This document shows positions 52,201 to 64,000 of a stretch of 64,000 bases of DNA, piece by piece. Origin of the DNA: Paraspadella gotoi (lineage: Eukaryota > Animalia > Chaetognatha); contig CM119264.1 of NCBI GenBank assembly GCA_051294375.1, positions 14,534,682 through 14,598,681 of the forward strand. Direction: 5' to 3'. Under the pieces are notes generated by a model that saw only the letters and a program-made list of their open reading frames with translations, was not told the origin of the DNA and made no database searches. Each line of letters begins with the position of its first letter. The stretch's first letter is position 1. The position numbers and the translations under genes are program-made.

Positions 52201-52897
52201 GTCAGTCCCTGAGTGATTTGAACCTTTCGCAGAGTTTCGCAGTTCGGTACTATTTCTACCATGCCTGTAACGAAAAAAAAATCTTAATCGATTAAGAGGG
52301 TTATTATTATTATTATAGTTTTCTTTTTCCCACTTCATTTTTCACTTGACTAAGAATCCTTCGCGATTTCACAATAAAATTCTCAAAAACAGAGCTTTGA
52401 ATAAACGCTGAATAATCAACAAACACTGTTGCTTTTACTGCAGTACACCGAATCGAAGAAATCTGTGGAAAACTTCGACTCACCCTGTCGGTCGCCGGTG
52501 GTGACCACGTTGAAAGTTATGATTCTATAATCCTGACCGCTGAGTAGCCAAATCCGGTTCATCACCTCCACCATTTGCAAGACAAATGCGTCCTGCCGGA
52601 GATCGTCGCCGGACTTGAACATTGCCAGACTCAGATCCGCTAAATCATAAAAAAAAAAGAATAAATTATAACTTCCTTATTTTATGATCGCCAACTTGTC
52701 CTTGGACAGTAAAACCGAGGCTCACCGGTAGAATCGAGATTATTGAATGCTAATCTGAGCGGGAGGGCGTTGGAATTGAAGACAAAGCAGCTCTTGACGT
52801 CGATGCCGACGACTTCAATGGTCGGGTCGAACGGCATGCAGAGCGAGGTGCGCTCCAGCAGCGCGTAGATTCCCTCCATCCCGTCGTAAAGAGTGTT
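49253..52897 (-). CDS. PIK3C2A: Class II phosphoinositide 3-kinase (PI3K-C2alpha-like), 3' part only: kinase, PX and C2 domains
   Basis: [79 protein letters not shown] domain [20 protein letters not shown]2 domain [22 protein letters not shown]; stop at 49253-49255. The most 5' exon begins at a splice acceptor (TTTTCTTAG|AAC at 52897), and no helical/RBD/N-terminal exons were found in the window. Confidence 0.9.
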
Positions 52898-53283
52898 CTA
52901 AGAAAATAAGAATGCGACTTTTTATTCTTTCAAGGCGAATTAAATGTTTATTCGCCAGTTTGACTACCCAAGGACATGATATAAAGAAGAAAGCAAAATT
53001 ACTATTCGAGTTATATCGATGTATTAGTAACTATTTGTAAATATACTAAATGTCAAACCAAAGTTTATTACAGACCATAGTATAAATCTGTTGACTTCAT
53101 ACAGATTTTATCCGGTTTTTTAATATGTCATGTTTAACCGAAGGCTATCAGCCGCTAAAATCATATTACATCTCAAAAATCTAATTTATAATTTAGAAAC
53201 ACAAGTTATGCCTTATGGATTTTTTTTTAGTCTTTTGCTTCGAGATTGATCCGACCTTCGCCTTGGAACATGTTCGAATAATA

Positions 53284-53322
53284 TCTCTCTCTCTCTCTCT
53301 CTCTCTCTCTCTCTCTCTCTCT
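53284..53322. repeat. (TC)n tract next to the X-box
   Basis: Read directly. Confidence 0.9.
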
Positions 53323-53335
53323 TTTTCAGCACGCA

Positions 53336-53348
53336 GTTGCTAGGCAAC
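53336..53348. promoter_or_regulatory. RFX X-box, GTTGCTAGGCAAC
   Basis: Near-palindromic match to the RFX consensus GTNRC(C)-N0-3-RGYAAC, about 260 bp upstream of the RAB28 ATG and in front of six cilia genes. Confidence 0.8.
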
Positions 53349-60165: not shown

Positions 60166-60361
60166 GCAATTTTACCCAAAAGGATTTTTATATGGATAAT
60201 AAGAATGGAATGCATTGAAATAAAAACGTGTAAATAATTTTCTTAACTTTTTTGCAAGCATAAAATAAATATCTTTTACGCTTTTTCATAAATTTGTCAT
60301 TTTGAAATAGTAAATCAGTTAAGACAAAAATGTTTTAATTGTAATCAAAAAACATTAAAAA

Positions 60362-62923
60362 ATGGAAATTGTTTATGTTTATACAAAAAAGAGGCAAGAA
60401 TTTGGTCGACAATGCAACTTTTCCGACAGGTAAGCTATAATAATGACTATAATACTAAATATCAATACTTAATATTGATTTCTTTCAGAGCGGCAGAGTT
60501 GCATGTAGATATTATGCCGGATGATAGCCTTGCAGCAAATTTTGTTGAAAAAAACCCAGTAGAAATAGGAATACAATGTGTCCAAGAAATGTCAGAACAT
60601 GAAGTTAATACTGAACGCTATGAAACTGAACCCAGAGGTAGTCAAATGACTATTTTCTTATAAATAATATTAATAAATATTATAAGTAACCAAAGAGAAT
60701 GATTTTTCAGGTTTGAATCATGTAGAAGGGGGTTGGCCTAAGGATGTTAATCCGGGTGAAGTTGAGCAAACAATAAGATACAGAAAAAAAGTTGAAAAAG
60801 ATGAAATGTATGTCAACACTATCATCCAACTTGGATCTGTAATGGAGCATTGCATTAAACAAAACAATGCCATAGGTAAGGAATACTATTCCTGGACTAA
60901 CAATCCTGGAATGAATGTGGCTAAAATGCTTGCATTGGTAGTGAGAATTACTACTAATTTGGTTGTAATTTTTTAAAAGACATCTATGAAGAATATTTCG
61001 ATGACGTAAAACAAGCTGACTTTGATGAAGAACCATCAGCTAAAACCATCAATGTTTTTCGAAATCCATGGACTGCAGAAACTTTGCCAGGCGAAAAAAA
61101 GCATACGGCAACAAGCATATCATGGTTTCCAGGTAGTAATTTTTTTTACAAATTTTAATGGAGAAAAGAGAAGGTAATTTATTGCAAATGTATTCAGATG
61201 GACCAAGCAGAGCAGCGGTAGCATATAGCAGCCTGGAATTTCGAGGATCAACTGTAGATTTGCCAATGTACTCATTCATATGGAATACTGAAAATCCTAA
61301 CAAACCTGAAATGACACTCAGACCTCCATCTTCAAATGTCTCTCTCGAATATAATCCGAAGGTTGATATTAAACAAAGCAGATATTCTAATAGGCCAAGA
61401 TCATATAAATAATATAGATTAAATAGTAAAACCTTGAACTTTAATATTCCAAAATATAAAATTAGAAAATAATGAAACAAGTAATTTTTCAAATTTTCAT
61501 AAAATTGATTGTTTTAAGGACTCGCACATACTCATTGGTGGGTGCTACAATGGGCAATTAGCGTTTTGGGACACGCGAAAAGGACCAATGCCTGTCGAAA
61601 CCACTCCTGTCGAATCTGCTCATCATGACCCTGTCTATAAAGTTATTTGGTTGCAAAGTAAAACAGGAACAGAATGTTTTTCTGGATCAACAGATGGTCT
61701 CGCGCTCTGGTGGGATATCAGGTGAATTTTAAAAATTTTTAACTCCTTATTTAAACGACGAATAGCTAACATAATTTACATTTCAGGCGCCTTGGAGAAC
61801 CAACAGAAAGGCTAATTCTCGATCCAACTAAGCAACTGGATCCATCAAAGGCTCAGGGAGCAATCTGTCTTGAGTATGAACCCACCATTCCGACAAGATT
61901 TATGGTGGGAACTGAACAAGGAAATATTCTGGGCTGCAACCGCAAAGCAAAGGGTCCTGCGGAGAAGATTGTATCGGTCTATTCAGGTACAGCACAAATA
62001 CAAAATGAATGGTGCCTAAATGCTTCTCCGTTTTAACGAAGAGTCATTTCATTTGTAATATGACAAAACCTGAGATCAGAACTAAATCAAAAATATATAA
62101 ATTACTAATGTTTGCCCAGGTCATCATGGACCCGTTTATGCGCTGCAACGTAATCCATTTTTTTCAAAAAACTTTTTGAGCGTTGGAGATTGGACGGCAC
62201 GAATTTGGTCAGAAGACATTAGAGAATCTTCAATAATGTGGACGAAAAGTCACAATCATTATTTGACAGATGGATGCTGGTAAAGTCAAATGGGTTGCTT
62301 AAAATTAGGAATAACAAACTATTTTTATAACCTTTCTTACAAAGGTCTCCCTCTCGTCCCGGGGTATTTTTTACAACAAAAATGGATGGAACTCTTGACC
62401 TTTGGGACATAATTTTTAAGCAAAAAGATCCTACACTGAGCATCCAAGTAAGCATTCATAACCCTAGTTTATTTAGCCAATGAAGAAAAACAGTTATAAA
62501 TCACAGATGATGATCTTAATTTTTTTAATGTTAGACCTATACTAATTCTTTAAAAAATTATCATTTCCAGATTTGCGAAGAACCTCTGTATTCCATAAGA
62601 GCTCATGAGCATGGTCGCCTAGTTGCAGTCGGATCACAGGTAACGGGAAAAAATATGTTACAATTACTGCAAGATAGCAATATAGCATTTGTTCATAGTA
62701 CGGCTCGATGACTCTGGTTGAACTTTCCGACAACCTGTGCACCCTGCAAACCAACGAGAAAGCCTTGGTGACGGCAATGTTCGAGCGAGAATCCAGGCGG
62801 GAGAAGATCCTGGAAGCACGTCACAGGGAGATGCGATTAAAAGAACGCGTGAAATCCGCTGCGGAAAACGAGAGGGCCGCCTCTGCTAACCAAGGAAACA
62901 AGAAAGAGGACTCCAATAAATGA
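60362..62923 (+). CDS. DNAI2: Axonemal dynein intermediate chain 2 (outer arm IC2, WD40)
   Basis: [108 protein letters not shown] at 62921-62923. Confidence 0.96.
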
Positions 62924-63084
62924 TATCCGCCTTAACACTTAGAATTGTAACTCGTTTCACCTTTTTGTTCTTGTTATCTTTGTGCATTAAAAAAACTCAT
63001 TACAGAAGAACAGAAAAAATGGTAAATTACTAAAAATTTTTTGTATTACAGCAGTTATGAGACCTATAAAAAATACATAAAACC

Positions 63085-64000
63085 ATGGCTTTTACACAAA
63101 CTGTGCAGCATGGATATCAGAGTGGCCGGCGTCATGACTACTTGTACGACAAGGTCTACACTGTTGGCAGTGAGAGGGACCATGCCCGAGATACCATCAG
63201 GGCAAGGACTAACATTGCCAACGTGCAAAGGTTGCCAGTCTACAGGACAATGTTCAGCGAGTTAAGACACAAGCCTCGTTTCAAAATGCGTCTGCAAAAT
63301 GTCGACCCAGTACCTCCGACGATCAAGAGAGAATGGAGGGGTCATGGAATTCAAGCACTCGAAGAATTGAAACGGTAAGATTTTACATTTGTTTCATACA
63401 TAATATGGTCATCAAAAACAACCACTTCATTGATGTTTTCTTAAGGCTTTACCAGCATGATCCAACCGTGAAAATACCAAAGCTAAAACCAGGAAATTCT
63501 GACGTCGGTGGGAAAGATCGAGCATTGTATTTTCGACGTCCGATCATCCCTTTTCTACAACAGGTAAAAATATGAACATTTAATTGGACCAATTTTTTTA
63601 AAAATAGATCCATTAATAAAGAATTAATTCAGATGCCGCCCGAAGTTTTATTAGCGCAAAAAACAAAAACCGCTCCTGGTACACGACAGAAAGACGAAAT
63701 GTTGCAGAGACCTCAATCTCCATTGGTCAAAACAATCATGACCCAAGTGAGTAGGAGGATAGCATACAAATAGAATAAACCTTACAAATATTTTTGAACT
63801 CATTTAATTTATAATTATATCTTGTTTTTTAATTATCTCACAGACGGACTACAGAGAGTCAGAAGCACAAACTGACCCTTACTCCCCCGAGTATGTGATA
63901 AGGCCGGGATCTCAGCCTGAACTTCTCACGCTGGCCACGCTTGCCTACGGGAGGGGTCTTCCAGCTGGTTTGGCCGAGGTAGAGATGATCGAAAGGGCAC
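63085..64000 (+). CDS. CFAP91: Cilia- and flagella-associated protein 91 (MAATS1; calmodulin/spoke-associated complex), 5' part, runs off the window
   Basis: [106 protein letters not shown]. Confidence 0.92.

Follow-up and report, generated by a model that had tools for sequence, protein, structure and literature searches.

A compact array of six cilia genes probably nested antisense in one long intron of a class II PI3K gene in the chaetognath Paraspadella gotoi

Background

Nested genes are known from insects. Nearly 10% of Drosophila genes take part in nested structures and 71% of the guests lie antisense to their hosts, according to the accessible part of PMC3814207. The closest multi-gene case is the TipE cluster of insects, five genes situated in the last intron of CG18675 (accessible part of PMC3240667). 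Animal operons, whose transcripts are resolved by spliced-leader trans-splicing, include those of the chaetognath Paraspadella (accessible part of PMC12460157). Here we analyse a stretch of 64,000 nucleotides of the Paraspadella gotoi genome (GenBank assembly GCA_051294375.1, contig CM119264.1, positions 14,534,682 to 14,598,681 of the forward strand), referred to as the window, in which six cilia genes on the plus strand adjoin the last coding exons of a class II PI3K (a lipid kinase) gene on the minus strand. The kinase transcript is spliced at position 52897 to an exon outside the window. In our view this exon likely lies beyond 64000 on the minus strand, so that one intron of more than 11.1 kb probably holds six or more antisense cilia genes. 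The probability expressed here and that given below to an assembly misjoin are judgements, not calculated values.

The TipE cluster resembles this arrangement in having several guests within one intron of a conserved single-copy host that spans about 20-100 kb, and its guests are co-regulated among themselves and not with the host. Four of its five guests are paralogues, whereas here six unrelated ancient cilia genes stand 115-278 bp apart behind one candidate X-box (as far as PMC3240667 describes the cluster). By coincidence, the TipE host CG18675 is the orthologue of C21orf59/CFAP298, a guest in our window. In the part of PMC3814207 on which we draw, intron-bearing guests of Drosophila prefer the opposite strand, as the guests do here; on the other hand, Drosophila guests are fast-evolving and narrowly expressed, often in testis, in contrast to the slow-evolving core cilia genes that form one block here.

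Paraspadella operons comprise co-oriented genes less than 250 bp apart, a distance kept by four of the five spacers of the present array, three of which are crossed by RNA contigs. The operon genes described in the accessible part of PMC12460157 are metabolic, broadly expressed and germline-enriched, whereas this array consists of cilia genes and no leader was seen. None of six gene names looked for occurs in three supplements of that paper, as far as these were available.

Mammalian PI3K-C2alpha acts at the ciliary base (accessible part of PMC4042153). The kinase described here belongs to the same class and has the same C-terminal PX-C2 architecture, but a ciliary role of this kinase or its co-regulation with the guests, most of which serve motile cilia, would be conjecture. 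The ciliary role of the host in mammals says nothing for a functional tie at this locus and is probably a coincidence. Open-access listings yielded no report of such a nested block of unrelated cilia genes behind one X-box, nor of genes housed inside an intron of PIK3C2. Multi-gene nesting as such is already known; what differs is the cargo of six non-paralogous conserved cilia genes, tightly spaced and co-oriented.

Results

Kinase gene and its upstream splice

The host gene and the features that define its long intron are as follows.

49253..52897, minus strand: class II PI3K, last 14 coding exons (open spliced model, Pfam domains, RNA contig)
52898..52899, minus strand: splice acceptor AG of the major PI3K transcript (exact fork point of the RNA contig)
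52898..64000, minus strand: probable host intron, at least 11.1 kb long and continuing past the window end (upstream exon letters and N-terminal exons absent from the window; 5' end outside it)

The spliced segment is an open frame of 676 residues with 13 introns of 64-309 bp, within the range of about 50-350 bp proposed in an earlier note on this DNA. Pfam domains follow in the order PI3_PI4_kinase, PX and C-terminal C2, which is that of class II PI3Ks. Among solved structures, the first exon, which begins at 52897 and contains an ATG in the kinase frame at 52879, matched best the kinase region of PI3K-C2alpha (7bi4 residues 587-637, E 7e-4). Identity of the segment to the best full-length class II PI3Ks is about 50-53%, and the named matches of the protein search were almost all labelled class II. 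In a FastTree phylogeny of 51 sequences (the window kinase and 50 of 111 relatives, those spanning the aligned region), the kinase is placed next to sequences of annelids, nemerteans and molluscs and not within the arthropods, at a low support of 0.34. A search with its PX exon gave no relative in the 93 candidates of one collection, which weakly suggests that the full-length kinase of this species is absent from that collection; a near relative (P0129; 91% over one exon) is present only on contigs of 0.8-2.4 kb. The 3' untranslated region (UTR) of the gene (48349-49252, minus strand) extends over about 900 nt in RNA, long for such compact surroundings.

Eleven sequencing runs were listed, nine of them containing the stretch. 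Contigs of seven (X1, X2 and X5-X9) were compared, X3, X4, X10 and X11 being the runs outside this comparison, and all contig results given here refer to the table rows shown. Run X9, from a third study, was taken as RNA from its own splice joints; contigs are unstranded. It displays GT..AG joints on the plus strand as well as a CT..AC joint in the PI3K gene, and joints in both directions mean that X9 contains spliced RNA of the kinase and of the guests alike.

The X9 contig of the kinase gene, 2934 letters long, consists of the exon model, a 904-letter 3' UTR and two letters of the acceptor, and stops at 52899. An AG acceptor in front of this exon had been noted before and is indeed present; it scores 5.5 bits, the median of true acceptors being 6.8 (scores calculated without controls). 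Two branches leave the contig at this point. One runs for at least 255 letters foreign to the window at a depth of about 150 (arithmetic on bin means); the other is unspliced, covers 52870-53274 and has a depth of 5.06, the spliced contig downstream having 169.7. About 97% of X9 depth at 52897 therefore passes into the foreign letters. Of these, 30 are printed; they have no match in the 64-kb window with up to three mismatches allowed, and no exact match among metagenome contigs. In the DNA runs (X1, X2 and X5-X8) no loose end is listed at this position, which contigs of five of them, X1, X2, X5, X7 and X8, pass into the intron. RNA depth of about 5 was likewise seen over 52900-53274 and part of a ZMYND10 intron, and next to none over PI3K intron 4 (309 bp), an absence that is uninformative.

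The main PI3K transcript thus reaches 52897 from a long exon outside the window, a conclusion supported by the contig fork and one that bears out the expectation of the earlier note. That note had also named transcripts that begin at 52897 or receive a spliced leader there. A minor unspliced form (depth 5) does exist, and a minor leader form could escape because contigs drop short tips. Known spliced leaders measure some 15-50 nt, and the dominant branch, with at least 255 foreign letters at a depth of about 150, is far beyond that length. A long foreign branch holding about 97% of depth strongly disfavours a start or leader at 52897, and we regard this explanation as extremely improbable.

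Translated in frame with the kinase, the 30 foreign letters contain no stop codon, but at this length the same is true of the other two frames. Among 433 profile columns their best placement is the one adjoining the junction, without significance. This leaves room for a kinase N-truncated at ATG 52879, with a real intron whose outside exon is non-coding or does not encode the helical domain; nesting would still be true. In its favour are the in-frame ATG and the non-significant helical homology of the ten foreign codons. Against it, the foreign letters show no stop in that frame and are best placed beside the junction, the residues preceding ATG 52879 align in register with relatives, and at least 943 upstream residues occur in all 77 full-length relatives (chosen for length from 120 matches). 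Such a truncated product was an alternative of the earlier note as well; both it and a leader at 52897 are very unlikely for the main transcript, and we give the truncated kinase with an outside exon only a slight chance.

Missing N-terminal part

Full-length relatives, that is those of the 120 matches with at least 1500 residues, carry 943-1378 residues upstream of the junction (median 1143; 77 of 77), shorter entries being found among the remaining 43. The earlier note had put the upstream part of class II PI3Ks, with its RBD, C2 and helical domains, at roughly 1000 residues. When N-terminal parts of all 77 relatives were compared with the whole window by tblastn, the best E was only 0.13, while C-terminal parts of three relatives, used as a positive control, recovered the PI3K exons in order. 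A profile built from the 350 residues that precede the junction, run against 3078 six-frame open reading frames of the window, gave a best E of 5.3. As had been claimed from inspection, the window thus yields no further minus-strand PI3K exons, and letter match, tblastn and profile all find no host exon within the span of the guests.

That relatives carry a median of 1143 more residues, none of them encoded in the window, speaks for the reading in which one long intron contains the array, which is the one we prefer. There is no N gap within 52897-64000. Given cis-splicing and a foreign exon that is absent from the window, this exon should lie beyond 64000, if the assembly is right.

The same RNA join and absent upstream exons would agree with a discontinuous gene, the N-terminal half of which lies elsewhere or is inverted, with the two coding RNAs joined by trans-splicing. 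This would also account for an otherwise unique intron, 36 times as long as the next longest of the gene. Yet no promoter or outron evidence was found for the C-terminal half, and the share of depth in the join, about 97%, is as expected of cis-splicing. Trans-splicing of coding RNAs is rare in animals, with Drosophila mod(mdg4) and lola as examples. We therefore rate a discontinuous gene as highly improbable, marginally more so than the truncated kinase.

Six cilia genes

The guests of the presumed intron are the following.

53610..54612, plus strand: RAB28, 4 exons (PDB 2hxs Rab-28, E 7e-34; three GT..AG joints in RNA; open frame)
54891..56081, plus strand: CFAP298 (C21orf59), 5 exons (Pfam CFAP298, E 3e-25; four RNA joints; open frame)
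56277..58903, plus strand: ZMYND10-like gene (only PDB matches of the MYND exon are ZMYND10, E 8e-4; first intron spliced in RNA; ends set by eye)
59019..60165, plus strand: DNALI1, inner-arm dynein light chain (Pfam Ax_dynein_light, E 9e-36; RNA joints)
60362..62923, plus strand: DNAI2, outer-arm dynein intermediate chain (PDB 8j07 DNAI2, E 5e-27; ten RNA joints shown)
63085..64000, plus strand: CFAP91, cut by the window end (Pfam CFAP91, E 5e-26; eight homologues, 53-71% identical; RNA joints)

RNA joints define 23 plus-strand GT..AG introns in this array, and the full models of RAB28 and CFAP298 have open frames; the guests are expressed genes spliced on their own, and to all appearance intact. 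Beyond the match of its MYND exon, the third gene is presumably ZMYND10 by general likeness.

RNA contigs fork at the first DNALI1 intron (59114-59180), which suggests alternative splice sites. High-copy repeats, with summed DNA depth in the thousands, occupy parts of a ZMYND10 intron (56700-56950; a diverged copy lies at 4543-4660) and of a DNAI2 intron (about 61440-61490). A scan for CFAP91 loci returned 80, between 1.1 and 7.8 kb long. Identity was 32-41% in 79 cases, and none of the loci, judged from the table, was useful for synteny.

Long intron and the TC array

Two elements lie between the kinase exon and RAB28.

53284..53321, no strand: (TC)19 array, which may serve as a GAGA-type promoter element and is the one site where a misjoin is conceivable (array scan)
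53336..53348, no strand: palindromic candidate X-box (RFX site) at the head of the array (motif match)

The PI3K exon and the X-box, which starts at 53336, are separated by 439 bp, practically the 440 bp estimated before. The 38-bp (TC)19 array lies inside this gap and contains no N. Whether kinase and cilia genes are truly neighbours depends on this short piece. Should the assembly be misjoined at (TC)19, the PI3K intron would be of ordinary length, between a few hundred bases and a few kb, and would continue elsewhere, and the cilia array would be real but belong to a different locus.

Several observations weigh against the nested arrangement, some of them in favour of such a misjoin. The array is the sole dinucleotide array longer than 16 bp in 33451-64000, and it stands precisely between kinase exon and X-box. 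No contig of the seven runs crosses it; contigs end inside. N gaps occur in the assembly, and one of its blocks is present twice with 90-95% identity between the copies, perhaps as uncollapsed haplotypes. The upstream exon is without a placement in DNA, and a misjoin is equally compatible with all RNA results. Furthermore, the splicing evidence comes from a single RNA run, whose RNA nature is a guess backed by its joints, and the helical-domain homology of the ten foreign codons is non-significant: 1054 of 5000 shuffles reach their score in the zone chosen first, and 319 of 5000 in a widened zone set afterwards.

The break of contigs at (TC)19 is itself uninformative, because graphs of 31-letter words must break there. 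Contigs are unbroken up to the array (47129-53274 in X1, likewise in X2) and beyond it, through RAB28 and CFAP298 (53333-56781), and RNA contigs enter the array from either side. DNA depth on its two sides is similar (29.8 and 28.8 in X1, 96.8 and 109.5 in X2). Against a misjoin speak the missing N at the site and the fact that 38 bp is less than the length of one sequencing read. Moreover, seven of seven dinucleotide arrays of similar or greater length (16-102 bp) in the duplicated block have consistent, collinear flanks in both copies, a control that with n=7 sets only a loose bound on the rate of join errors. Finally, the upstream regions of ciliary genes of Caenorhabditis elegans are enriched in GAGA-type motifs (accessible part of PMC5145144), which gives the array a reason to adjoin an X-box. 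On balance, we hold a misjoin to be unlikely, though clearly the most serious of the competing explanations.

The proposal that the missing exons lie past 64000, so that a single intron of more than 11 kb hosts the cluster, therefore stands in one part: RNA supports splicing from outside the window. The intron itself rests on the assembly across (TC)19.

Regulation and possible operon

If the nested reading is correct, a distant promoter would transcribe the kinase through the array, antisense to the guests, and the long host intron would be removed by ordinary cis-splicing. It could be removed whole because the splice and polyadenylation signals of the guests face the opposite way. The X-box together with the TC/GA array at 53284-53348 would drive the guests, RFX probably switching them on together, and they may be expressed as an operon or by chained read-through. 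A rearrangement most likely brought the array into the intron, from which it would afterwards be hard to lose.

All six genes are co-oriented and, as in trans-spliced operons, separated by short spacers: from stop to start, in array order and counted by eye, these measure 278, 195, 115, 196 and 161 bp. Strict X-box matches number two in the 64 kb, the second being inside a ZMYND10 exon (general consensus, without shuffle control). One RNA contig of 2241 letters spans RAB28 and CFAP298, and one of 4581 letters spans DNALI1, DNAI2 and CFAP91; both lack the introns but keep the spacers. Being unstranded, the contigs do not show a single transcript: UTRs that overlap, or pre-mRNA of the antisense host, would give the same picture. 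Between CFAP298 and ZMYND10, RNA cover is interrupted at 56183-56204, and the ZMYND10 contig begins at 56205, immediately preceded by a pyrimidine-rich AG that has no visible donor and may be an acceptor for trans-splicing. Sites that resemble this AG by eye stand in front of DNALI1 and CFAP91 too, and acceptor-like scores are 0.6 bits for RAB28 and 4.7 bits for CFAP298 (without controls). Leader-like loose ends on downstream genes are absent from the contig tables shown, contigs dropping short tips. A bacterial promoter scan was uninformative.

The bridged spacers and the start at 56205 hint at an operon with trans-splicing. It is a tentative suggestion that at least six unrelated core cilia genes form an operon, driven by RFX from one X-box and lying antisense in the single giant intron of a ciliary-base lipid kinase. 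Such an operon would combine a trafficking GTPase, two dynein assembly factors, inner- and outer-arm subunits and a radial-spoke protein; that it represents a functional operon of bacterial style, serving the construction of motile cilia and locked in place by nesting, is just as doubtful, and we offer it as speculation.

To our knowledge, motile-cilia genes are generally scattered in animal genomes and have in common only a transcription-factor site. If the nested arrangement is true, a compact six-gene block behind one X-box, surrounded by a housekeeping gene that is itself expressed, would offer a natural test of whether animals put operons together by function. It would likewise test how the host escapes interference in ciliated cells from strongly induced antisense guests. 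If the join is an artefact, nesting is gone, but the six-gene cilia array stands and is unusual on its own.

Neighbouring features

Downstream of the kinase, at about 42900-47520 on the minus strand, lies a TPR-SET-MYND gene. The doubled block measures 9.5 kb and occurs twice in tandem (14273-23745 and 23771-33450), its copies being separated by 25 N and 90-95% identical; it may be a real duplication or uncollapsed haplotypes. The part of the window containing it (1-33450) holds 19 of the 21 GA/TC arrays of the window and is apparently gene-poor, seven tested open reading frames of 1-41000 having no Pfam match.

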